A stretch of DNA of 32,854 nucleotides. It comes from a virus (taxonomy: Duplodnaviria; Heunggongvirae; Uroviricota; Caudoviricetes). The notes under the pieces were generated by a model. The model had not been told where the DNA came from. It searched no databases and worked only from the letters and a program-made list of their open reading frames with translations. Each line of letters begins with the position of its first letter. Positions within the stretch are counted from its first letter, which is position 1. Position numbers and translations under genes: made by a program. The stretch lies in the IMG/VR virus record IMGVR_UViG_2703718859_000017, one strand, 5' to 3'. Below, in pieces: positions 1-14,179 of this stretch.

Positions 1-417
1 ATGAGAGTAAGCCCCTACAATGAAAACGAATCTGTAATATTAATTTATTTGCATATTGATTCTTCTGTCAGAAATATAGTCATTGATTCCTTCAGTGAGG
101 TGGGGCTTCAGCCAACTGTGCCCCGTAACTTCTGCCTTGGATCTGGTGATGACAACATTGCCTCATTGATAGTATCTTTACTCAGGGCCAACTCTGTGCT
201 GGTACTGGAGGCGCTGAAGATGATTCTTTCAAGAAAAAAAATTGAAATTGAGGTTGTGCAAAGTGGAACGGCTGATAATCCTGAGACTATTACAAAAATA
301 AAGGTTTCACGCCCGGAGGATCTTGAAGCGTGTGGTGTTATCGTGGAAAAAATTTGTGCTATTCATGCAAAATCAGTTAATACCACTGCCAGTAACGACC
401 ACAATAAATACAACTGA
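1..417 (+). CDS. Partial CDS (5' end outside window), hypothetical protein; AT-rich relative to the prophage
   Basis: ORF track 1..417 is open from the window edge and stops at 415-417. Composition is visibly AT-rich. No recognisable motif. Confidence 0.3.
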   Translation: MRVSPYNENESVILIYLHIDSSVRNIVIDSFSEVGLQPTVPRNFCLGSGDDNIASLIVSLLRANSVLVLEALKMILSRKKIEIEVVQSGTADNPETITKIKVSRPEDLEACGVIVEKICAIHAKSVNTTASNDHNKYN

Positions 418-424
418 ATAAAAA

Positions 425-442
425 GGCCCGCATGTCGCGGGC
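425..442 (-). terminator. GC-rich hairpin (6-bp stem GCCCGC/GCGGGC, 5-nt loop) followed by a T-run on the minus strand; candidate intrinsic terminator
   Basis: Read directly: ggcccgcatgtcgcgggc flanked by an A-run on plus, which is a U-run on the minus-strand RNA. Confidence 0.35.
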
Positions 443-908
443 AAATACGTCTGTAATCCAACGGAGAAAGGGTGCCATATCGACCGAACCCGGCAACCGG
501 ATAGCGGGGGCTTTCACCCCCGCTGCGGTTTCTTACTGTTTACACTGCAAGAACGCCGCAAATTCTGACCACATGATGTTAAGCCTGAACTCACACGGTG
601 ACTTGTGTATCATCCAGACAATCATCAAAATAGTTATGCATAAAATGCTCACTATGATCGTTTTTTGCGGCATAGCGCTTGACTCCTTTTACAGGGAGGC
701 GCTAACCTTCCACTTGCGAGGTAGATGGGTTAGGGCCTCGGGTTAAACAAATGTTTGACTCGGGGCCTTTCCACATCCGGCCTTCAGGTAATCCTTCCAG
801 CCGTCAGCCGAAAGGCACCCGCGCGTAATTTACCTTTTACGTCCGTTACGTGCAACGGATGACGTGGCTGTTTTTCCTTCCCCTTCGCCATCCTTTTTCG
901 GAGCAGTT

Positions 909-1537: not shown

Positions 1538-3211
1538 CTATTCGATTATTGGCGAATATTTATTTTTTAGCTGGCGGCACTCCTGAGCGACCTGGCTGAA
1601 CTGTGCGGCCTGCGGAGACGTGCCCGTTTTTGGGTGGGTATGTGATGCTGTAATATCTGCCAGCTCTTCCACCACATCGGCAAGGTCCGTCAGCATGGTC
1701 AGTACATTAATGCCCTCGTTTCCCAGCTTCACCGTATCGCCAACCAGCTTCTGCGCCAGCGCAATACTGTGACGGACGCCCTTAATCTTTTCGGTAAGGC
1801 TGCCGCCCACGGTGTCCAGGGTGTCGCCTTCCACGTCGCGCTCACAGGTACCGGCAACCACCATCATGTGTCCGCCCGTGCTGATGCTGTAGCTCTCTTC
1901 AGTGATATGGGTGACCGCGCCAGCCTGAAGCGTGGATACGCCCAGGACGGTGGTTGTGTCGGTTGCCTGTATGGTGGTCTCCCGGCTGGTCAGGCTCCGC
2001 GTTTCCTCGTCTGCGCTCACCACGCGCTCGCGTGATGTCTCCTGTATCCGCTGGTCTGTCTGGCGCTCCCAGTCTCCGGCGACCGTCACGCGCTGCGATA
2101 CGCCGTCGCGCTGTTGCTGCAACTGCTCGCCCGGCTTCACGTCGGGCAGATTGTGGCCCTCTGCCATTATCTGGCGGATGAAGGGCTTATCCGCCCGGCC
2201 TTCCACAAATCCCACTTCCACCAGGGTTCCGGGCGGCGGGAACTGGAACATGCCGGACTCACTGCCCGCCATGGGAACGGGGAGGGGAACGGCGTTATAA
2301 ACGGGCGTATCCGCTGCCGGGTTGCCGTTCTCGTCAAGCAGCTGGAGATTCACCGCGTAGCGGGGTCTGAACGGGTCGGCAATATTGCCCGCGCTGACGG
2401 CTTCGGTCGGCGCCTCAACACGTGCCAGTTTGGGCAGGTGAAGCCCTGATGCCAGTTCAGGGAAGGCCTTTTCAGCCTGGCGACGGAAAGGGGACTTCTG
2501 GAGGGGAGCGCCGGTGGCTTTATTGCGCGGTGTCCACGTGATGGTCATGTTGTCATCTTCCAGCATGACCATCGTCAGGCGCTGACCGTTCACCTCCACA
2601 CCCGGTCGCAGCGTCTGAATCATCGGGAGGGTCATACTGTGCCCGCCCGTTGATGCCTGGCTGAACTCGTGCGGGATGGTGACGGGGCGACCGGAAAACA
2701 TCCCCTGCGCGGCAGCAGCGGCCATAATGCCGCCGTCCGGTAACGGATGCCAGATGTAATCCGGTACGGAGAAAATACGCCCCAGACTGGCCAGCAGTTC
2801 GTAGCCCGTGCCGCTGTGTGTGAAATGCGGAACGGGTCTGTCAGTGTAAGCCGCGTTGTCCGGCAGGATGATTTCCAGCCCGCTGGTCTCACTCAGCCAC
2901 TGTGTGACCGTGCGCATTGTCGGGTGCTGAAATGAACAGGGGAAGGGGTGATCAAGGATCCCCGCCATTTCACGAATCAGAAGCCGCACCGAGCCGTTTT
3001 CAGCGGGCTGGCTGCGTTCAACGTATCCGGTAAACCAGCGCACCAGGTCGTTTCCGTATCCGATATCGAGACGAACGGGGCGCCCGGTGTAGTTCTGCTC
3101 TGTTCTGGCCGTGATAAATCCGCGTCCGCACGCGTTCAGCTCAAGCATGACGGAACAACTGACCAGCTGAATGGTGTCGTTACCCAGTAACAGACGTTTA
3201 GTGGGGTTCAT
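1538..3211 (-). CDS. Tail-operon distal protein (557 aa); possible baseplate hub/spike-like component, function not established
   Basis: ORF track. Last gene of the tail operon before the terminator. C-terminal half has repetitive beta-rich character; no hub or spike gene is otherwise recognisable in the tail module. Identity is inference. Confidence 0.3.
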   Translation of the reverse strand: MNPTKRLLLGNDTIQLVSCSVMLELNACGRGFITARTEQNYTGRPVRLDIGYGNDLVRWFTGYVERSQPAENGSVRLLIREMAGILDHPFPCSFQHPTMRTVTQWLSETSGLEIILPDNAAYTDRPVPHFTHSGTGYELLASLGRIFSVPDYIWHPLPDGGIMAAAAAQGMFSGRPVTIPHEFSQASTGGHSMTLPMIQTLRPGVEVNGQRLTMVMLEDDNMTITWTPRNKATGAPLQKSPFRRQAEKAFPELASGLHLPKLARVEAPTEAVSAGNIADPFRPRYAVNLQLLDENGNPAADTPVYNAVPLPVPMAGSESGMFQFPPPGTLVEVGFVEGRADKPFIRQIMAEGHNLPDVKPGEQLQQQRDGVSQRVTVAGDWERQTDQRIQETSRERVVSADEETRSLTSRETTIQATDTTTVLGVSTLQAGAVTHITEESYSISTGGHMMVVAGTCERDVEGDTLDTVGGSLTEKIKGVRHSIALAQKLVGDTVKLGNEGINVLTMLTDLADVVEELADITASHTHPKTGTSPQAAQFSQVAQECRQLKNKYSPIIE

Positions 3212-3213
3212 GG

Positions 3214-3756
3214 TTACTCCAGTGCATCATTGACGGGTTTGAGGACCTTTTCTTCGAACCAGGTCATTTTCTCCGGTGTTTCGTCGGCCACGGTCCCGCC
3301 TTTTGCGCCGGGCGTCTGCGGCGTCTGTTTACGGCTGCTGCCGGGGGTGGCGCGTGCCTGGCGTTTTTCCGGTACGCTTCGTCTTTCGCGTAATGTGAAG
3401 CTGACCTGCCAGGCGAGGCGGTCGGTCTGCTGCTGTGCGTCTATCTGCCCGGAAAATGTCCCTTCACGAAAGTTAATGGCGGCAGCGGTGGCGTTTGCGA
3501 TACGGTAAACTTTCAGGGCACCGTCCCCGGTGGTGGCAGAGGCCAGCTGGAAAATGCGCTGAAGGGCCCGCTCATTGTCAAAGGTGATCATCCCGGTTAC
3601 GCGAAGCTCTTTGGCCTTGATGCCCTGCTCGGCGTTCGCGGTGCTCGATGTCTGACCGGACTGGTCCTTTTCCTGGAACTGCATCGAGGGCGAAATCACC
3701 ATGTTCTGCATGAAAATACCCTCACCATCAAGGGCGAGCAGTGCGGTCTGGCTCAT
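3214..3756 (-). CDS. Hypothetical tail-module protein (180 aa)
   Basis: ORF track. Co-oriented and tightly packed with tail genes. Start may be the internal Met at 3711. Confidence 0.3.
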   Translation of the reverse strand: MSQTALLALDGEGIFMQNMVISPSMQFQEKDQSGQTSSTANAEQGIKAKELRVTGMITFDNERALQRIFQLASATTGDGALKVYRIANATAAAINFREGTFSGQIDAQQQTDRLAWQVSFTLRERRSVPEKRQARATPGSSRKQTPQTPGAKGGTVADETPEKMTWFEEKVLKPVNDALE

Positions 3757-4453
3757 GGATCATTTTCCCCAGTTCGGTTAATGAGTCTGCCGCCAGGAGT
3801 GCGGCCACAGTATGTACGGCGGTCGGTGCCGGGATATCCTTCACCATGGCCGCCGCTGCGGCGCGGTGATACCCCCGGTACTGAAATACCCAGGCCTGCG
3901 CCTTCTGTTCTGCCAGTGTTCTGATCCCCTCTTCCAGTCCGGCAAGTGCGCCAGCCCGTCTGCTGATAAAGCGGCTTATCTGGCGGCGAAGCCCTGCGGC
4001 ATCCGGGCGTTGTGCTGCCAGCTGCCTGGCCTGTGCTGCACGGGCGGCACTGACTGCGCTGCGTATTGTGGAAACGGAAAGATGCACAGGTGCGGGCAGG
4101 GTGTCGGTGGTGATCGGGATTTGCATTTTGTCAGTGCTCAGACTGGCGGCAGCCTGTGCCATGCGCTGTGCCTGCGTGAATACCGGCACGGGCAGAACGG
4201 TGGTCAGTGCCGCCATTGACTGTATAAAAAGATCGTGGGTGTTTTCGGCAATCATGATAATGGTCACGTCGCCGGATGCACGGCTTCCGGCCATTTTCCC
4301 GGCCAGCCAGTTTATGGCGTTCGGAGGGCTTAAATATATCCCCGATTCTTCATATCGTCCCAGCCCGTAAGTCCACGGTGTGACGGGGATGACGGAACAG
4401 CTCAGCGGGGGCATGTCAGCGCTGACGCTGATTGTTTTTCTTGTCCACGTCAT
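3728..4453 (-). CDS. Hypothetical protein (241 aa) immediately downstream of the tail fiber assembly gene
   Basis: ORF track. Ala-rich, no recognisable motif. Sits where P2 has its Z/fun locus after gene G. Confidence 0.3.
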   Translation of the reverse strand: MTWTRKTISVSADMPPLSCSVIPVTPWTYGLGRYEESGIYLSPPNAINWLAGKMAGSRASGDVTIIMIAENTHDLFIQSMAALTTVLPVPVFTQAQRMAQAAASLSTDKMQIPITTDTLPAPVHLSVSTIRSAVSAARAAQARQLAAQRPDAAGLRRQISRFISRRAGALAGLEEGIRTLAEQKAQAWVFQYRGYHRAAAAAMVKDIPAPTAVHTVAALLAADSLTELGKMIHEPDRTARP

Positions 4454-4464
4454 GGTGCCTCCGG

Positions 4465-5061
4465 TCAGCCTGCGTGATGATCCGGCGAAGGGGATTCAGG
4501 CCAGACAATATCCGGCGCGTTGCCCGTGTCTGTCCGGTTCAGTAATACCCGGTATTTTTTCCACAGGGGAAGCAGGGCGCTTTCATCGTCGGTCGCCATA
4601 TTTAAATCCACGGCATCCTGGAGGATGTTTATTGTATTTGTTGCTTCCTGTATTAATTCCCGTTTTTTGTTCTCCGCCTCGCTCACCCGGTAAGCCTGTT
4701 CTGCTGCTTCATCCTTAACCCATGATGAACCATCCCACCGGCAGAACTCCCCGTCCGGTTTTATTTCTGTCACGTTTTCCGGTAACGGGCCCGGCTCAGT
4801 AATCAGTAAGGTGCTCCCCGACTCCAGACGCCAGACGGCTTTACCCCGGTGATCTTCCATGAGGTGCCAGGCGTTTTCATCCTCATCAAAGATAGCCACG
4901 TGTCCTTCAGGAATGTCAGGCGGGGCAATGTCCGTTGAGTGCGCAGGCAGTCCGGTATGCGGAGGGATCCAGGCATCGCCTTCGCCGATAAATTCATTTG
5001 TTCCGGCTGACAGGTTGTAGATTTTAATTGTCTGTGGGTGTTCGCTCATTTTAAAGGTCAT
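4465..5061 (-). CDS. G: Tail fiber assembly protein (P2 gpG / Tfa-like)
   Basis: ORF track 198 aa. Start overlaps the fiber gene stop by 1 nt. Position and size match the Tfa chaperone that follows the fiber gene in P2-like phages (recalled). Confidence 0.65.
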
Positions 5062-7121
5062 TATGCAAGCCTCACGATGTAGTTAAATGCGATGTTTTTG
5101 ACGGTGTTTTCCGCATTACCGGTGGGGTTAATGGTCAGGCCGTGGCCATGTTGACCCAGTGCGAGCGTGTGGATGTGTTCGCCAATGCTTACCGAATGTG
5201 TGTGTTCCGAAACTCTGGCGATCAGGTTCGCCCCGGAGCCCGGCCCGTATGCGGTCCAGTCACTGCTGCCTTCCGGTGACGCGGTGGCGGTTCTTAATGA
5301 TATTGTTGCGCTGAACGGCCCCGCGCTGTTTGTTGTTTTTGTGCCGTAATTGAAGGATGAGGTCGTTTTTGTGCCAAGGTCAGTATTTGAGACGCTCCCT
5401 CCGTGGGTGTGCGATTTGATGCCGTCCTGCTCCTGTGACAATACCGCACGACCGCTGGCAGGTTTTCCCTTGATTGTCCAGCCACGCATATCCGGGATAC
5501 GACCATCCGGATAGGCTTTTGCCAGCAGGGGATATCGTGCTTTATCGAATGTCTGCCCCACCATGATGGCGTAACCGGCAGGTGGGGTGTCTGACGGCCA
5601 CGGCAGGGGAACGCCTGCGGGTAACAACTCACTTGCAGGCAGTGCGCCGATGTCCTGTGGTGTGGGTTTGTTTTTGTCCGTGTAAGTGCGGTACCAGATG
5701 GTGCTTTTCCCTTTATTTAAAACAACCCCGGTGAACTGTGTGCGGAGGTACATGTCGGCAGGGTTTGGGCTTTCGAGACCTGTCGTGATCCTGATGATCC
5801 CCCCGTTGATGTCGCCTGATACTTCGATAAGGCAGCCTCCAAGGCAGATATCACCATAGCCCGTATCAGTGAGCACGCTGTGCCGGGAAAGTGAAATATT
5901 GGCTTTGAATATCCAGAGTCCTGGTCTGAAGGCGCCACGTTCATTCAGCCATTCCACGAATTGTTCTGTTGTCCAGCGTTGCCCTGCTTCACCCACGTAC
6001 CCGTCTTTTGCATAAACGCGTGGTGCGCCCACGTTGATCAGGAACAGCTCCTTGTTGGGGATGTCCTCACCATTGCGGTTTTTCGCAAGCCGACCATCGG
6101 CGTTGTCCATGGCGATCTTTATAGCCTTTGGCGTGGCTGCCTGTGTCTCTGATGTACTGGTGGTGGCGCTGCTTAACTGTGTGAAGCCCTTTTCTTTCAG
6201 CGTTGCGTCCGGGTGGTTGCGTGATTTCTCGTGTTTTTTCAGAGCGTCCAGCCAGCGGCGTTCTTCCGGCGTTCCTCTGGGGCGCAGGTCAGTCACGTTG
6301 CCGTCTTCATCAATGTCAGCAAGGGCAAAAAAATATTGCCGGGCGGCCTCCTTCCTGTGTGCTTCCAGCAGGATCTCTTCCGTGGCGGCGGGGTCGGCCA
6401 TGATAATATCGTGCTCCACCGTCCATTCACTGGTGAGCGTACCGGTCCACCATACTGTCAGCCAGATACGGGACGGGAAGTCTGGCGTGGTCAGCGGTAT
6501 GTCTTCGGTCAGCTCTGCGCGTAATCCCTCCACGTAACCGGTCCCTTTGCAGAGTGACCATCTTTCGCCTTTTTTAACCAGCCAGCCGTCCCCAAAGAAT
6601 GCAGCGTTACCGTAAATATCGATGTTTTCCCGGCGCTGGCGCTCGTCCATGGCCGCCAGGCGTGCCGTGAAGTCTATCTGCCAGGTCTGCGCCGGGGTGG
6701 TGATACCTGTGGCTTCCTTCGCACCGCTGTACTCCATGAGCATGGAACGGACCAGCACATTACCTTCGTTACCGTTGTGGGTTCTGATTTTTTTCTGTGT
6801 GGGGGCGTGAACAATCATGGCCAGCGTGCTGGTTGCTTTGCTGACCAGTCCCACCCAGTTAAATTCAAAATCACCCAGCTCTGCCCCCAGGGTGACCGAA
6901 TAAACCACGGCATTCTCATTCACCACGCCGGTTTTGCCAACGGCCTGGCGGTGAACAATCTGATCTTCAGGTGGCAGGGTTTCGTCGGGGGATACCGGTG
7001 TTTCCGGGTTGAGGTCCGGGACGTTTGCAAAAACAAACTCATCCAGCACAACGGGGGTGCCTTCCGCCGCCTGCTGTGCCTTGAGCCGGATAAAGGCGCT
7101 GGTAATTACAGATTTCGCCAT
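5061..7121 (-). CDS. H: Tail fiber protein (P2 gpH-like)
   Basis: 686 aa. Contains [34 protein letters not shown], closely matching the remembered conserved P2 gpH region. His-rich HxH C-terminal segment ([25 protein letters not shown]). Confidence 0.8.
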
Positions 7122-8869: not shown

Positions 8870-9197
8870 AGTTCACCCTGGTGTTTATGCGTCCAAAATC
8901 CTGTGTCTCTGCCGTCACATGCAGCCTGCCCGGTGCCTCTTCGTTAATGAACACCGTCCCCGGAACCAGCCGTTCATCATCCTCAACCAGGAGGATAAGC
9001 CGGGTAATGATGTCGCTGCGCAGCGTCGGGCTGCGTTCGCCGATAAGCAGGGCGGCGATCCCGCTTTCGATAATGCTGTGCACCACGTCCTGGCCGATGC
9101 TGACCCGGTTATCACATCGCTGTGGCTCGTTGCCGCTGTTCAGCGTAAAACTGCCGTCAGTGATAAGCATGTCGATGTAAAGCGATGGCGTGTTCAT
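8847..9197 (-). CDS. Small baseplate protein, possibly gp25/GpW-like
   Basis: ORF track 8847..9218. Likely ATG at 9197 overlaps the tape-measure stop (ATGA). Contains a GER-containing segment; weak resemblance only. Confidence 0.3.
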   Translation of the reverse strand: MNTPSLYIDMLITDGSFTLNSGNEPQRCDNRVSIGQDVVHSIIESGIAALLIGERSPTLRSDIITRLILLVEDDERLVPGTVFINEEAPGRLHVTAETQDFGRINTRVNYERETGR

Positions 9198-11380
9198 CCC
9201 GCGTAAAGCTCCGTCCATTCATCCAGTTGCCCCGGCGTCATCGGGTTCTGCGTGTTGATTGTCAGATTGCCGAACGTCCGGCTGTTGTCGATACGGGTTG
9301 AGGTGTCCGTGCGTATCTGGTTGCGTATGCCTCCGGGTGGCAGCTCTGCGCTGATGCGGTTGCCTGCCAGTGCCGGGACGGCGGTTTCTGCAATCTGCGG
9401 AGGTACGGTGCTGCCTGTTGCGCCCCGCGTCATGGTGTTCACCTGCTCCGTGGGCTTCATGTCGATACTGATACCGGGGATTTTGTTCAGCTTTTCCGCA
9501 AGCCAGTTCCACGTCCGGTTAAACGAGTTTTTAATGACGTTCCATAAGTCCCCGAAGACGTTACCGATGATCCCCGCCATTTTCCGGAAGGATTCGACCG
9601 GGGCGGTCGGGTCAAATGCAGCCACCACGTCCTGCCACCCTCTGATGACGATGGCGAAGATGTCGATCAGGGTTCTGATCACGCTGATAACCACCTCCAG
9701 CGCGGGGGATATCAGGCTTACCGCTGCGGCCACCACGCGACCGCATGTTTCCCCGGCACGGGTGACGCTGTTCATCTGTCCCGTGGTCAGCTGTACCGGT
9801 GCAAACAGATCGGAGAAGGCACTGAACAGTGTTTTTATGCCCTGCCATACCGGGGCCAGCGCCCGGGCAATGTCACCGAACGCGGCAGTCACCGGGCTCA
9901 TGGCGTCCAGTGCGCTGGTAAAACCATCAATAAAGCCGCGAATAAAGGCTTTGATGGGCTGCCAGAACTTAATGGCCACCACCACCAGAGCAGCGATGGC
10001 GGCGGCAACCAGGAGGACCGGGGCGCTCATGGTCAGAAACGACACGCCCGCCAGACGCGCGGCAAGACTGGTGGCAATGATGGCACTGCGTACTTTTGTG
10101 AGTGCAAGCGTGTACAGACTCCAGGCTGCCCTGGCGCCCTTTATGATGGCCTTATGGCCTTCCATGATGAAGCTGAACACACCCAGCACGATGTTCGTGA
10201 CCGCACCGGCTGCGCCCAGCGCCAGCATGGTCAGCGTGATGTAACCCAGCCAGCGGGCGATGTTCGGGAACATGTTCAGCCAGCGCACGAACGTCGCGCC
10301 GATATCGGCAAAACGGCCAGCCAGTGGTGCGAGAATGGGGTAGAGGGCGTTACCGATGGCGGCCCGGATGTTGTAGAAGGAGGCCACAAGGCGGTCCCAC
10401 GGGTCGGTCATGGCTTCCGCCATTTCCGTGGCACGCTTCATGCCGTCATTACGCCCCAGCGCTGATATGCTCCGGTTAAGCATTTCCTGCTGTCCCCAGA
10501 GTTTTTTAATCACGTCCGCGCCACTGCCGAAGGCGTCATCCAGCGCCTGTTGTGCCGCCACGTTACCCTCAATGTTCCTGCCGAACCTCGCCTGCAGACG
10601 GTCGAGGATGTCACCCATGGGTAAAATCTTCCCGGTGGCATCGACAAAACTCATCCCCATTTTTTGTGCGGCAGCGGGGGCACTGCGCAGGAATTCCTCA
10701 TAGATGCCCGATGCCTCGGTGCCCATGGTCCGTGACAGGGTGCCCAGTATGGCAAACTGCTCTGCCATGCTGACGCCAAAATCCGCGCCCGCGTTTTTGG
10801 TGCCCTCAATAAGCTCCTGCATGGTGCTCATTTCCACACCGAACTGCTGAACCATCCACGCGGTTTTACCTGCCAGATCTTCAGCAAACCCCACGGCACC
10901 CATGGCAGAAAACTCACTGCGGAAACGGGCACCCATGGCGGCAAGGTAGCCGCTCGCCTCTTCGCTGCTGACGCGGGTAGCCACGGCCAGGGTGCTGGTT
11001 GCTGCCGTCACACGGGGTAAATCCCCGTCGCTCAGTCCGTCCAGTGCGCCGCGAATATGCCATGCGGAACGGATGATCTCCGTGGAAGACTGACCGAATG
11101 CGGTCCCCAGTTTCATGGCCTGCGTGGTGAGGGCGGTCAGCGCCTGCGCCCCGACGCCTTTGGCCTCAAGCTCGCCCAGCGCCTTCTGCATCTCCCACGC
11201 CGGATCCATCGCGGCGCGGATACCTTCGGCCACGCCCCACAGTCCGGCCACACCCACACCGATACGCGCGAACGCGCCCTGCGAGCGTTCGGCGAATCCC
11301 GTCACGGATTCCTGAACCTGCCGCAGCGGGCGGGTAAGCTGGTCTGTCAGATTGATAATGAAATCCAGCTGGCTGGCCAT
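9194..11380 (-). CDS. T: Tail tape measure protein
   Basis: 728 aa with long hydrophobic internal segments. Immediately downstream of the E/E' chaperone pair; ATG sits right after the E' stop. Confidence 0.8.
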   Translation of the reverse strand: MASQLDFIINLTDQLTRPLRQVQESVTGFAERSQGAFARIGVGVAGLWGVAEGIRAAMDPAWEMQKALGELEAKGVGAQALTALTTQAMKLGTAFGQSSTEIIRSAWHIRGALDGLSDGDLPRVTAATSTLAVATRVSSEEASGYLAAMGARFRSEFSAMGAVGFAEDLAGKTAWMVQQFGVEMSTMQELIEGTKNAGADFGVSMAEQFAILGTLSRTMGTEASGIYEEFLRSAPAAAQKMGMSFVDATGKILPMGDILDRLQARFGRNIEGNVAAQQALDDAFGSGADVIKKLWGQQEMLNRSISALGRNDGMKRATEMAEAMTDPWDRLVASFYNIRAAIGNALYPILAPLAGRFADIGATFVRWLNMFPNIARWLGYITLTMLALGAAGAVTNIVLGVFSFIMEGHKAIIKGARAAWSLYTLALTKVRSAIIATSLAARLAGVSFLTMSAPVLLVAAAIAALVVVAIKFWQPIKAFIRGFIDGFTSALDAMSPVTAAFGDIARALAPVWQGIKTLFSAFSDLFAPVQLTTGQMNSVTRAGETCGRVVAAAVSLISPALEVVISVIRTLIDIFAIVIRGWQDVVAAFDPTAPVESFRKMAGIIGNVFGDLWNVIKNSFNRTWNWLAEKLNKIPGISIDMKPTEQVNTMTRGATGSTVPPQIAETAVPALAGNRISAELPPGGIRNQIRTDTSTRIDNSRTFGNLTINTQNPMTPGQLDEWTELYAG

Positions 11381-11381
11381 G

Positions 11382-11845
11382 TCACCTTCCGTTAAATGCG
11401 ATCGCTATACCTTCAGCGGTCTTGTTGGCGCGGGTACGGGCAAAATATTCATCCAGCCAGATGGCACGGGCGATGCTCTCTTCGTCGTCCGGCTCTCCGG
11501 GGAGGTAGTGACGCCGCAATGCCAGATACTGCTCAAGGGGATTGCGGCGGATGCTTTCGACCCGCGCGGTCAGTTTTTTAACTCAATCTCCAGTTTCGGG
11601 GAGTAAACCTCGTTAATCTTCTCGACGATCTGCATCTCACAGCCCGGATAACGCGCAATCAGGTCAGCCAGTGCGTCGCGGCTGGCAGGTGTCACGATGC
11701 GGTTAAGATAGGTGCTCATCGGCGCCACCTTGTTGGTCATCGTGATTTCGTTGATGAGGTTGTTAAATGCCGTTTTGTTCGGTTCAAAGCTCAGGGTTAC
11801 GCCCGCAACGGACAGGATGATGGTGCCGGTGTTCTTCGTGGTCAT
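11382..11845 (-). CDS. Tail assembly chaperone E+E' (-1 programmed frameshift product)
   Basis: Manual translation in the -1 frame from the slippery site gives an open extension of about 60 codons, ending at TGA 11382-11384 just before the tape-measure ATG (11380). Confidence 0.5.
11570..11845 (-). CDS. E: Tail assembly chaperone E (zero-frame product)
   Basis: 91 aa ORF ending ...KLEIELKN with slippery heptamer A_AAA_AAC at its 3' end. Conserved position before the tape measure gene. Confidence 0.6.
   Translation of the reverse strand: MTTKNTGTIILSVAGVTLSFEPNKTAFNNLINEITMTNKVAPMSTYLNRIVTPASRDALADLIARYPGCEMQIVEKINEVYSPKLEIELKN
11573..11579 (-). promoter_or_regulatory. -1 ribosomal frameshift slippery heptamer A_AAA_AAC
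   Basis: Minus strand reads TTA AAA AAC TGA at the end of E. X_XXY_YYZ heptamer seen directly. Confidence 0.5.
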
Positions 11846-12135
11846 TGCAGTTTCTCCGTGTTTCGTATGGTTTCCACCAGGCTGTTATGCCTGGCGGCGC
11901 ATTCGGTGTAGCGGCTCGTGAGGGTTCGCAGTGCCGCATCAAAATCAGCGCCCGTCGGGCCTGCCAGTCTCGGCAGTGTCTTCGGGCATTCCGCCAGCTG
12001 GTTTTCCTGCCAGGGTACGCTCAGCGGCTTCAGCACGGGCGTTGAACAGCCGGACGTAATCATCAGTAGCGCACACATTGCGGAATACCGGGCGGACGGT
12101 TTCCGTGTGAATAACGCGTTCAGTGTGAATTTCAT
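11842..12135 (-). CDS. o-spanin (outer-membrane lipoprotein; lipobox LMITSGC)
   Basis: 97 aa ORF in an alternate frame overlapping the 3' part of the i-spanin gene and extending beyond it. Lipobox with Cys followed by a Pro-rich segment. Confidence 0.5.
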   Translation of the reverse strand: MKFTLNALFTRKPSARYSAMCALLMITSGCSTPVLKPLSVPWQENQLAECPKTLPRLAGPTGADFDAALRTLTSRYTECAARHNSLVETIRNTEKLQ

Positions 12136-12331
12136 TGCCCTTTAACGCCTCCAGCCGTTTTTCCAGTATGCGGGCGGACTGCTGCCCGGCTTCTGTTACC
12201 GCACGTCGCGTGGCTTCCATGGCTTCCTGTTCGGCAAGCGCCACCCTGGCGTCATGCCAGTCATGGGCCAGCCAGCCCGCCCACATGGCGGCAAAGAGGA
12301 TCACCAGGCAGCCCGCCACCTGTTTCATCAT
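11945..12331 (-). CDS. i-spanin (N-terminal transmembrane helix plus coiled-coil)
   Basis: 128 aa. N-terminal hydrophobic helix VAGCLVILFAAMWAGWLA, then charged helical region. Start overlaps the endolysin stop. Confidence 0.5.
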   Translation of the reverse strand: MMKQVAGCLVILFAAMWAGWLAHDWHDARVALAEQEAMEATRRAVTEAGQQSARILEKRLEALKGNEIHTERVIHTETVRPVFRNVCATDDYVRLFNARAEAAERTLAGKPAGGMPEDTAETGRPDGR

Positions 12332-12666
12332 TTCACCCCGTTGTGCTCAAGGCTGAAATGATTGCCGTCTGCCCGGCTGAAGCGTCCGCCCCATGTGCCG
12401 CCGATGGATTCCCAGTATTCCCCCAGCGGCCTGTAGGCGTCGGTATCGGCCTGGTATTCGCCGTTAATGAACAGGTTGAAGTCCACCGCGAGGCGCAGCG
12501 TGTGAAGGCTGTTGCGAATGCCTTTTCCGCTTTTCGCATTCAGTGCGGCCTGCTCCGGCGTGCGGTATGCCTCGCCGAAGGTCAGGCGATAGCCGTGCTC
12601 CTGTGCCCAGTGGATGAGATCGGCAATCATGACGGCAAACAGTTGTTGTTTTTCGCTCAGTTTCAT
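12328..12666 (-). CDS. Endolysin, peptidase M15-type zinc peptidase (L-Ala-D-Glu / D-Ala-D-Ala peptidase family)
   Basis: 112 aa with SLHTLRLAVD and DGNHFSLEH motifs that resemble the remembered H-x6-D...H zinc site of M15 peptidases. Sits between holin/MTase and spanins. Confidence 0.55.
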   Translation of the reverse strand: MKLSEKQQLFAVMIADLIHWAQEHGYRLTFGEAYRTPEQAALNAKSGKGIRNSLHTLRLAVDFNLFINGEYQADTDAYRPLGEYWESIGGTWGGRFSRADGNHFSLEHNGVK

Positions 12667-13418
12667 CAGTCACTCCTCTGTTCCGTCCCCGTAAGACGCG
12701 CCTGTGCCACGCTGAAATAGTGGGCGTTCAGTTCAATACCCGTAAAACGGCAGCCCCGGCGAAGGGCGGCCACGCCCGTGGTGCCGGACCCCATAAACGG
12801 ATCGAGGATCAGCCCTCCGGGTTCACACACGCGCACAAGCTCATCCATCAACGATTCCGGTTTACCTGTCGGGTGCTGTTTCTCCTGTGGGCGTGTGTGG
12901 TGCGTGATGCAGCCGTCGAACGGCCCGGAAGGGGATTTGCCCAGCGCGCCTTTACTGCCCCAGACCACATATTCGCACTGGTGACGAAAATAACCGGTAT
13001 GCGGTGTTCTTGAGGCCCGTCCCTTGTTCCATGCCACGATCCCCCGCCAGGTAAAGCCGGCGGCCTGGAATGCGTCCGTCAGCGCGGGCAACTGCCGCCA
13101 GTCGGTGAAGACCAGGGCGTAACCACCGGGTCGTACCGTGCGCCATGCCTGTGTCATCCACAGATGCGTCCAGTATTCCCATGAACGGGCGTCCATGTTC
13201 TCGCCTTCGAAGCCTTCAAAGCGGTGAAGATCTTCATCGTTGATGTATTTGGCGTGGCTGCCCTGGCATGTCCGCCCCGCCTTGTGTGTGGCACCTGAAC
13301 TGTATGGCGGGTCTGTGATGAGCGCGTCCACACTGTTTTCCGGCAGCATCCGCAGAACGTCATGCGCCTGCGCGTGATACAGGCTCAGGGAAGGCGAAAT
13401 GTAAGGCTTATGGGTCAT
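12666..13418 (-). CDS. DNA methyltransferase (N6-adenine or N4-cytosine, beta-class); orphan, no adjacent restriction enzyme
   Basis: 250 aa with ITDPPYSSG (catalytic DPPY motif) near the N-terminus and LDPFMGSGTTG (AdoMet-binding FxGxG) near the C-terminus. Overlaps the holin stop and endolysin start. Confidence 0.8.
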   Translation of the reverse strand: MTHKPYISPSLSLYHAQAHDVLRMLPENSVDALITDPPYSSGATHKAGRTCQGSHAKYINDEDLHRFEGFEGENMDARSWEYWTHLWMTQAWRTVRPGGYALVFTDWRQLPALTDAFQAAGFTWRGIVAWNKGRASRTPHTGYFRHQCEYVVWGSKGALGKSPSGPFDGCITHHTRPQEKQHPTGKPESLMDELVRVCEPGGLILDPFMGSGTTGVAALRRGCRFTGIELNAHYFSVAQARLTGTEQRSD

Positions 13419-13713
13419 TTCTGCGTTCCTTCTGCTTCAGGTAGCGGTCTGCCAGACGGCAAAAGCATTCTTCAATAAAGGCGCTGCCCATAATGCCCAG
13501 CGCGCACGCCAGACCGACCACAACCAGCTCCGGCATGTCAGGAAATTTAAACAGCGGAATGGCGGCAACCGGTGCCACGGCAGAGCCCATAATCATTCGC
13601 CCGATAAGCAGACGGGCTGTGATGCGATCGCGGCTCACCATGAGACGCCCCAGCCCGATGGCAGCACCGATGATAATCAGTTTTGCCAGGAGTGAAGTCT
13701 GACCGTCCGGCAT
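13408..13713 (-). CDS. Holin-like membrane protein (three predicted TM segments, charged C-terminus)
   Basis: 101 aa ORF with hydrophobic segments LLAKLIIIGAAIGLG, GSAVAPVAAIPLF, LVVVGLACALGIMGSAFI and a C-terminal KQKERRND tail. First gene of the lysis cluster. Confidence 0.45.
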   Translation of the reverse strand: MPDGQTSLLAKLIIIGAAIGLGRLMVSRDRITARLLIGRMIMGSAVAPVAAIPLFKFPDMPELVVVGLACALGIMGSAFIEECFCRLADRYLKQKERRNDP

Positions 13714-13717
13714 GGCA

Positions 13718-14179
13718 TCACCCCTTCAGATCGCGGGTGTCACGGGCTGACAGGTAGGGCACGCCGTCAATGCTGATAAAGTCCGGGCTTGTGACCATGA
13801 ACTTGATTTTTTTCGTGGTCTTTCCGGCTTCGCCTGCGCTGATGTTCACCACGTCCGACAACATGGGGACGCAGCCGAATACCTCGATTTTTTCCTCCTC
13901 GCTGCCGTTGTTGGCATAAAAGAGAAAATCCTTTTCAGGAATGGCACGCCACGACCCCGCAGAGCGGGCCACAGCACCAAACTTTTTAAAGTTCTGCGCG
14001 TCGACTTCCACCTCCACATCGGCAGAAACAGAACCACGGGTGTAGCCGTTCGGCACGCCGCGCGTCTGTGCCACGGCGCTGTTGTCGGTGATGGTGACGG
14101 TGGCGCTTTCCACGTGGATCATGATCCCGTCGTAGTTGATATCAAACGCGCCGCCGCTGATACGTTCATTTCCGGCCAT
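13718..14179 (-). CDS. Putative tail tube protein
   Basis: ORF track 13718..14209. Likely start at the Met at 14179, just after the sheath stop. About 150 aa following the sheath-sized gene; assignment by order and size. Confidence 0.45.
   Translation of the reverse strand: MAGNERISGGAFDINYDGIMIHVESATVTITDNSAVAQTRGVPNGYTRGSVSADVEVEVDAQNFKKFGAVARSAGSWRAIPEKDFLFYANNGSEEEKIEVFGCVPMLSDVVNISAGEAGKTTKKIKFMVTSPDFISIDGVPYLSARDTRDLKG

Follow-up and report, generated by a model that had tools for sequence, protein, structure and literature searches.

Orphan DNA methyltransferases of phages, their silence in the lysogen and their role against restriction are already well known. Among the closest described cases are M.EcoGII and M.EcoGI, carried by prophages of Escherichia coli O104:H4, which methylate adenine without sequence specificity, are silent in the lysogen and are presumed to serve in anti-restriction; M.EcoGII, a prophage-borne beta-class enzyme silent in lysogens, is harmful if expressed constitutively, blocks many restriction enzymes and is thought to defeat restriction (PMC5778455). 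Here we describe a methylase gene found in a stretch of viral DNA of 32,854 nucleotides (IMG/VR record IMGVR_UViG_2703718859_000017; "the window"), where it lies on the minus strand between the holin and endolysin genes of a P2-family prophage. By description it is like M.EcoGII and M.EcoGI in being of the beta class, with DPPY followed by FxGxG, prophage-borne and orphan; it differs in length, with 250 amino acids (aa) against 349.

Two further groups of described systems provide a frame. The solved beta-class enzymes CcrM, M.BceJIV and M1.HpyAVI share the fold and motifs of the window methylase and differ from it in being chromosomal regulators or parts of restriction-modification (RM) systems. 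The target of CcrM is GANTC; neither this sequence nor those of M.BceJIV (GTWWAC) and M1.HpyAVI (GAGG) is transferable to the window methylase. The lysis cassettes of phages HP1, K139 and SI7 share with the window the order tube, holin, endolysin and Rz, set between the tail tube and tape measure genes; they differ in that the holin is directly adjacent to the endolysin. In the literature searched no methylase is described between a holin and an endolysin, and cargo beside a lysis module has a precedent in the phage AbiF system that adjoins the holin gene in C. difficile.

We read the window gene as encoding a solitary beta-class, probably N6-adenine, methylase that is cargo of an HP1/Irrigatiovirus-type prophage, would be made late only and in coupling with the holin, and would mark phage DNA against restriction; we put the probability of this reading at about 0.72. 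The methylase would have been acquired by precise in-frame insertion between the holin and endolysin genes. Its production would be limited to the time of late-operon expression and tied to that of the holin, with ribosomes going on to it from the end of the holin gene, and replicated phage DNA would be methylated just before packaging. Progeny would thereby resist restriction in the next host, and the chromosome of the lysogen would stay unmodified.

The methylase open reading frame (ORF) has an ATG start, 250 codons and a TGA stop (753 nt). Its features are as follows.

12666..13418, minus strand: coding sequence of an orphan beta-class DNA amino-methyltransferase, 250 aa (ORF, PF01555, phrog_67, AlphaFold2 and Foldseek)
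13302..13313, minus strand: motif IV, DPPY, residues 36-39, catalytic (sequence reading)
12858..12875, minus strand: HPTGKP, residues 182-187, motif X-like AdoMet-binding region (30-sequence alignment; aligned to the HPTQKP of CcrM)
12774..12797, minus strand: motif I, FMGSGTTG, residues 208-215, AdoMet binding (sequence reading)

The motifs stand in the order IV, X, I and, since motif IV comes first and motif I last, the protein belongs to the beta class. The methylase matched Pfam PF01555 (N6_N4_Mtase) with E=1.2e-27 and 97.8 bits (cutoff 26.7), PHROG phrog_67 ("DNA methyltransferase") with E=3e-70 and, over its full length, PADLOC MTase_II with E=7e-62, a label assigned from sequence. In a sequence search of the Protein Data Bank the best solved relatives were CcrM, M.BceJIV (8URK, an orphan N6-methyladenine (m6A) enzyme) and M1.HpyAVI, with E about 1e-21 at only about 23-26% identity. 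An AlphaFold2 (AF2) model, for which the input was a 30-sequence family alignment, reached a pLDDT of 86.5 and a pTM of 0.87; its top match in Foldseek was CcrM (E=2e-18, TM 0.74), with rotifer N4CMT, M.BceJIV, M1.HpyAVI, TTHA0409, MboIIA, PvuII and RsrI among further matches. On this model the methylase is predicted to have the Rossmann-like methyltransferase fold of the solved beta-class enzymes. Enzymes of this class act as dimers (PMC7544214).

Conservation across the family points the same way. In the 30-sequence alignment, which includes the window protein, the window methylase has the family residue in every invariant column: DPPYSSG and DPFMGSG are invariant, as are H182, K186 and P187, and D206, P207, F208, G210 and S211. 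The family tightly conserves DPPYSSG, DWRQLP, HTGYFRHQCEY, K.H.TGKP and DPFMGS, and the stretch from the catalytic core to motif X is short (about 30 residues). The first-pass annotation, made from the sequence of the window, had named a beta-class amino-methyltransferase from the motifs DPPY and FxGSGTTG; motif reading, PF01555, phrog_67, PADLOC and the fold all confirm this, and by its sequence the gene is an intact member of the class. RefSeq already annotates it as "DNA-methyltransferase" in a copy that is 99.7% identical; the protein has the accessions WP_000149053 and WP_054626680. The literature searched holds no methylome assignment for this subfamily.

The product is most probably N6-adenine methylation, because motif IV is DPPY and the best structural matches (CcrM, M.BceJIV and M1.HpyAVI) are all m6A enzymes. 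A DPPY motif IV is typical of such enzymes; those that produce N4-methylcytosine (m4C) usually carry SPPY or SPPF. That the window gene might nevertheless encode an N4-cytosine enzyme is suggested by PF01555, which covers both kinds, and by the presence of rotifer N4CMT and M.PvuII among the structural and sequence matches; given the m6A-typical motif and the identity of the best matches, we consider it improbable.

No partner nuclease was found. Apart from the methylase, the non-structural prophage ORFs that were scanned with Pfam and PADLOC gave no match to a restriction endonuclease (REase), a nuclease or a defence gene, and no restriction enzyme is annotated in the 20-kb flanks of the 99.7%-identical copy, that of strain JNEC-KY174, where the chromosomal flanks hold housekeeping genes only. 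The large ORFs at 1538..4453 (including one of 557 aa at 1538..3211) were considered as a defence island or REase and rejected, being homologs of the HP1 orf33-35 baseplate genes. A Type II RM system was likewise rejected: the paired REase gene was found neither in the prophage scans nor in the annotated flanks. The methylase is an orphan, and the earlier claim that no restriction partner lies nearby is borne out by the neighbour assignments, by the Pfam and PADLOC scans and by the RefSeq annotation of the 99.7% copy.

Judging from that RefSeq annotation, from Pfam matches to HP1_Orf24, HP1_ORF34 and Phage_Cox and from synteny with phage SI7, the window is nearly the whole of an HP1/Irrigatiovirus-type P2-family (Peduoviridae) prophage of E. 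coli. A 2.8-kb query around the methylase found full-length matches in 12 of 5426 complete E. coli genomes, at 98.1-99.7% identity, and no DNA-level match to any deposited phage; JNEC-KY174, 2013C-3033 and 04-00955 are among the lysogenic strains. The JNEC-KY174 copy sits between serS and dmsA and is annotated with an integrase, Cox, a replication endonuclease, Ogr, a portal, a terminase, a P2-type capsid, a DUF2586 sheath, an HP1-type baseplate and hok genes.

The closest isolated phages, Salmonella phages SI7, SW3 and SW5 (Peduoviridae, Irrigatiovirus), reveal what the locus looks like without the methylase. Their genes run in the order sheath, tube, holin, M15 endolysin, Rz, chaperone and tape measure, with no methylase; holin and endolysin genes overlap one another, and the holin protein is 69% identical to that of the window. 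In a blastn comparison with SI7, homology in the holin (79%) extends to about window position 13472 and returns (75%) precisely with the endolysin start codon at 12666; in place of about 56 nt in SI7 the window has about 805 nt. The window endolysin aligns with that of SI7 over its full length, free of gaps and with few substitutions. The empty site is also present in E. coli 2000-3039 and JB2 (78% identity). Since SI7 and E. coli 2000-3039 possess the same cassette without the methylase, the ~805 nt behave as a precise insertion. In HP1 and K139, classical phages with the same tail and lysis layout, holin and endolysin are adjacent, and the methylases of these phages are unrelated and lie in the early replication operon. 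Two segments are delimited by these and related comparisons.

12667..13471, minus strand: segment present in the window and missing in methylase-less relatives, comprising the last ~21 holin codons and the whole methylase (blastn)
12715..13335, minus strand: methylase core; DNA homology with relatives from other contexts is confined to it (blastn; loci compared: Chuche, Yersinia, and the Com-linked and Mu-like loci of Salmonella, all described below)

GC content is flat across the insertion (0.55-0.62) and does not indicate foreign origin. The holin ends in ~21 residues (EECFCRLADRYLKQKERRNDP, window 13408..13471, minus strand) that have no DNA homology to the tail of the SI7 holin; this new cytoplasmic tail was brought in together with the methylase segment. 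The novel-tailed holin is nevertheless identical in all eight E. coli copies that we compared.

The methylase had been placed by the first-pass annotation between a holin-like gene and an M15 endolysin, overlapping both, and this is the arrangement found. The overlap with the holin is 11 nt, the holin stop and methylase start sharing ATGACCCATAA, with an AAGGA Shine-Dalgarno sequence 8 nt before the methylase ATG; the overlap with the endolysin is 1 nt (stop and start in TGATG). Holin, endolysin and Rz/Rz1 make up a Gram-negative phage lysis cassette on one strand, with genes ordered as in SI7, HP1 and K139. The cassette is flanked by the tail tube gene on one side and by the tail assembly chaperone and tape measure genes on the other; the chaperone, a DUF6890 ORF and the tape measure lie downstream of it in the same transcription unit.

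13718..14179, minus strand: tail tube gene (HP1 Orf24 family), 4 nt upstream of the holin (PF10772, E=3e-51; JNEC-KY174 RefSeq coordinates)
13408..13713, minus strand: holin, 101 aa (PF04550, E=1e-19; phrog_175, E=6e-31)
12328..12666, minus strand: M15 (Peptidase_M15_4) endolysin (PF13539, E=4e-10; phrog_1768, endolysin)
11945..12331, minus strand: Rz-like spanin, inner-membrane subunit (phrog_1152, E=5e-31)
11842..12135, minus strand: Rz1/LysC-like outer-membrane spanin lipoprotein (phrog_2425, E=9e-22; phrog_456; weak match to PF23793, LysC)
11570..11845, minus strand: tail assembly chaperone (PF10963, E=9e-31; JNEC-KY174 annotation)
within 9194..11845, minus strand: small DUF6890 ORF, in this interval together with the chaperone and tape measure (JNEC-KY174 annotation)
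9194..11380, minus strand: tape measure (JNEC-KY174 annotation)

The Rz1-like gene overlaps Rz in another frame, and its translation carries the lipobox-like LMITSGC.

This position bears on when the methylase is made. The gene lies within an unbroken one-strand run of late genes (sheath, tube, holin, methylase, endolysin, Rz/Rz1, chaperone and tape measure), in which genes either overlap or are separated by gaps of at most 4 nt; the gap between the tail tube gene and the holin, of 4 nt, leaves no room for a promoter. A scan of 9-21 kb for sigma-70 promoters and terminators gave matches at or below chance, with none on the coding strand near the cassette, and the P2 Ogr-type late promoter motif TGT-N12-ACA matched seven times against 6.6 expected. 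In the annotation of phage K139, whose layout is the same, one late operon reaches from the scaffold gene to the baseplate. By analogy, we infer that the methylase is transcribed only with the late operon. Late-only timing is supported by the precedent of M.EcoGII and by the repeated occurrence of the family under late control: behind Com, in the tail operon of phage KS5, between terminase genes and between holin and endolysin. M.EcoGIX, considered as a relative, was rejected; in the literature it is a plasmid-borne, single-strand-specific methylase.

A family search returned at least 5927 database clusters at E<=1e-20 and 1595 phage records: this is a very large family of mobile phage cargo. 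The nearest relatives of the window methylase stand elsewhere, each behind a zinc-ribbon gene of the Mu Com type overlapping the start of the methylase.

Escherichia phage Chuche, 73% identity: hok-like gene adjoining, near int; Com upstream
Yersinia prophage, 67% identity: hok, Com and methylase after HP1-type baseplate genes
Salmonella copy, 65% identity: Com and methylase
Stenotrophomonas Smp131, 48% identity: after the portal gene; Com upstream

To these can be added Burkholderia KS5 (gp20/gp21), in which Com and an N4/N6 methylase lie within the tail operon. The Com-linked methylases of P2-like phages (Chuche, Smp131 and KS5) are like the window gene in belonging to the same family, in being orphan cargo of P2-family genomes and in being late-only. 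They differ in site, which is near int, after the portal or in the tail operon, and in overlapping Com, whereas the window methylase overlaps the holin instead. Control of the window methylase by a Com module in the style of Mu com-mom was rejected: the upstream gene is the holin, and in a tblastn search of the window with four Com proteins the best match (E=0.06), like all others, lay away from the methylase, with no Com gene or remnant found.

For the survey, 159 loci were sampled from genomes and viral contigs and the adjacent ORFs on the same strand were classified in bulk with Pfam. The commonest upstream neighbour was Com (12 of 145), and DUF1804 (7) came second; lysins stood next to the methylase only about five times in the whole survey, and at the surveyed loci no restriction enzyme family was among the 25 commonest neighbour families on either side.

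Two Mu-like settings deserve description. In Mu-like prophages of E. coli a methylase of 56% identity lies between DUF1804 and the large terminase gene, a placement that adds a third way in which the family is embedded in a late operon. At one such locus (L172, on a contig of GCA_048114245.1, 3454..6383) the genes are just downstream of a lysis cassette with two holins and a GH108 gene, and DUF1804 is small-terminase-like; the 90%-identity cluster of this methylase has 440 member sequences. In Mu-like prophages of Salmonella (cluster P0011) a methylase of 60% identity and, as in the window, 250 aa is situated between holin and endolysin, here a Phage_holin_2_1 holin and a T4-type lysozyme, with a spanin following and ATGA overlaps at both ends. 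The differences are that the phage is Mu-like, that its holin and endolysin are unrelated to those of the window (Phage_holin_3_2 and an M15 peptidase) and that DNA homology is confined to the methylase core. In a neighbour-joining tree Com-linked clades fall between the two lysis-embedded clades. Taken with the unrelated holins and endolysins, this placement suggests that the position in the lysis cassette was probably reached separately, at least twice. The position is unusual but recurring; its details, its recurrence in Mu-like phages and the polymorphism in presence and absence are useful without being surprising.

Other readings of the enzyme and its placement can be considered. One is that the enzyme has low or no specificity and is toxic to the host, on the pattern of M.EcoGII or Mu Mom, and that a place behind the holin confines the harm to the last minutes of the cell. 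The nearest relatives are indeed under Com, the translational gate that restrains the toxic mom gene of Mu; REases are missing from the 25 commonest neighbour families; the core-to-motif X region is short; and M.EcoGII is an example of a prophage beta-class enzyme that is non-specific, does harm if constitutive and is silent in lysogens. However, sequence specificity is seen in small beta-class enzymes of comparable length (M1.HpyAVI; M.BceJIV, with GTWWAC), the link to M.EcoGII is a shared Pfam family, and late-only placement is equally expected of an ordinary site-specific anti-restriction methylase. We hold this explanation to be unlikely. In a broader form of it, the 250-aa subfamily as a whole would be toxic to the host and have little or no sequence specificity, as smaller equivalents of M.EcoGII that phages would have repeatedly and independently confined to the terminal phase. 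This we regard as likewise unlikely; were it true, a Com gate in some phages, and holin-fused translation here and in the Salmonella Mu-like prophages, would put methylation and lysis on one clock.

A second possibility is that methylation is regulatory, timing late genes, lysis or packaging for the phage in place of protecting against restriction. The recurrence of the lysis-cassette position in two unrelated phage types is in keeping with this, and the orphan beta-class enzymes CcrM and M.BceJIV are known regulators. Yet SI7 and the E. coli 2000-3039 prophage manage the same cassette without a methylase, HP1 and K139 lack one at the holin-endolysin site, and the family occupies many unrelated sites, as a portable accessory gene would and a wired-in regulator would not; a regulatory role is very unlikely. 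The first-pass annotation had left open anti-restriction protection or epigenetic control following methylation before packaging. Anti-restriction has the better support, and none of the findings specifically favours epigenetic control; methylation before packaging is strengthened by the repeated placement of relatives under late-only control in other phages. A Burkholderia phage methylase studied by Smith and Jeddeloh in 2005 reportedly acts on excised phage DNA only.

The methylase is maintained: its ORF is intact, at 753 nt, in 8 of 8 E. coli copies compared, with a pairwise pN/pS of 0.36 over 24 variable sites, below 1. The exact window protein is found on 414 contigs, and the listed members of its cluster bear the name E. 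coli, with a single exception, a Caudoviricetes metagenome assembly; more than 1300 contigs carry the Salmonella version. Of the 5426 complete E. coli genomes, about 290 have relatives whose methylase core matches at 65-74% nucleotide identity.

Several observations nonetheless weigh against the reading of a late, holin-coupled anti-restriction methylase. The pN/pS of 0.36, from only 24 variable sites, is looser than that of the endolysin (0.07) and of the holin (0). At position 16, where at least 90% of the family has Gly, the window methylase has Ala, in a region that is confidently folded in the AF2 model. No relative examined shares DNA homology with the 28 N-terminal or the 16 C-terminal codons of the methylase. 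A predicted hairpin burying the ribosome-binding site and AUG of the methylase is no better than in shuffled sequence (z=-1.2) and, with a z of -1.25 at the Salmonella locus, was rejected as evidence for translational coupling. DPPY is compatible with m4C, and the rotifer N4-cytosine methylase ranks high among the structural matches. Finally, the literature searched gave no activity, target motif or expression data for the methylase or its close relatives. The unusual termini, the change of Gly16 to Ala and the constraint looser than on neighbouring genes would be expected if the gene were a functionless passenger, inactive or decaying and tolerated since its in-frame insertion spares lysis. 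Such a passenger would hardly persist intact in all eight copies and as an identical protein on 414 contigs, nor retain every catalytic and AdoMet-binding motif, a confident structural model and a pN/pS below 1; we judge it highly unlikely.

The copies of the prophage show additional variation. In E. coli Z1323MEC0001 (L173, 1367..2119) 11 residues differ from the window methylase, against 0-1 in other copies; the changes are partly clustered (A135C, S136A and T141P), which suggests recombination with a divergent allele and not point mutation. The tail-fibre gene, whole in the window (5061..7121, 686 aa), is annotated as two pseudogene fragments in JNEC-KY174 (L001, 13562..15622), and the sheath gene is frameshifted in O22:H8 strain 154 (L177). 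The broken tail-fibre and sheath genes imply that some prophage copies are defective despite an intact methylase ORF.

At the left end of the prophage a Hok/Gef-like toxin ORF of 46 aa (MPQKTIIVSILCITILMIVWMIHKSPCEFRLNIMWSEFAAFLQCKQ) occupies window 533..673 on the minus strand, about 12 kb from the methylase; two plus-strand ORFs lie beside it at the window edge, at 1..417 (138 aa, starting at the first window base) and 432..746 (104 aa). The window differs here from the JNEC-KY174 copy by indels, and the left end of the latter has three annotated Hok/Gef genes. In Chuche and the Yersinia prophage a hok-like gene is directly upstream of Com and the related methylase, which suggests that hok and the methylase family often travel together. 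In Vibrio phage K139 (L179, 21566..21775) a gene for a DksA-like C4 zinc finger stands between the tail tube and holin genes; as a further small gene of accessory or regulatory kind at the border of this lysis cassette, it suggests that the boundary is a recurrent insertion point in HP1-type phages.

Phage orphan methylases are a common and mostly uncharacterised route of restriction escape. The family described here is controlled in at least three ways, by a Com gate, by embedding in late operons and by coupling to a holin, and a single prophage lineage with and without the methylase offers a natural experiment. Should the enzyme prove non-specific, an adenine methylase of 250 aa would be a useful tool; otherwise it would be an ordinary accessory gene. 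Identification of its target would serve to annotate the thousands of family members found in enterobacterial prophages.

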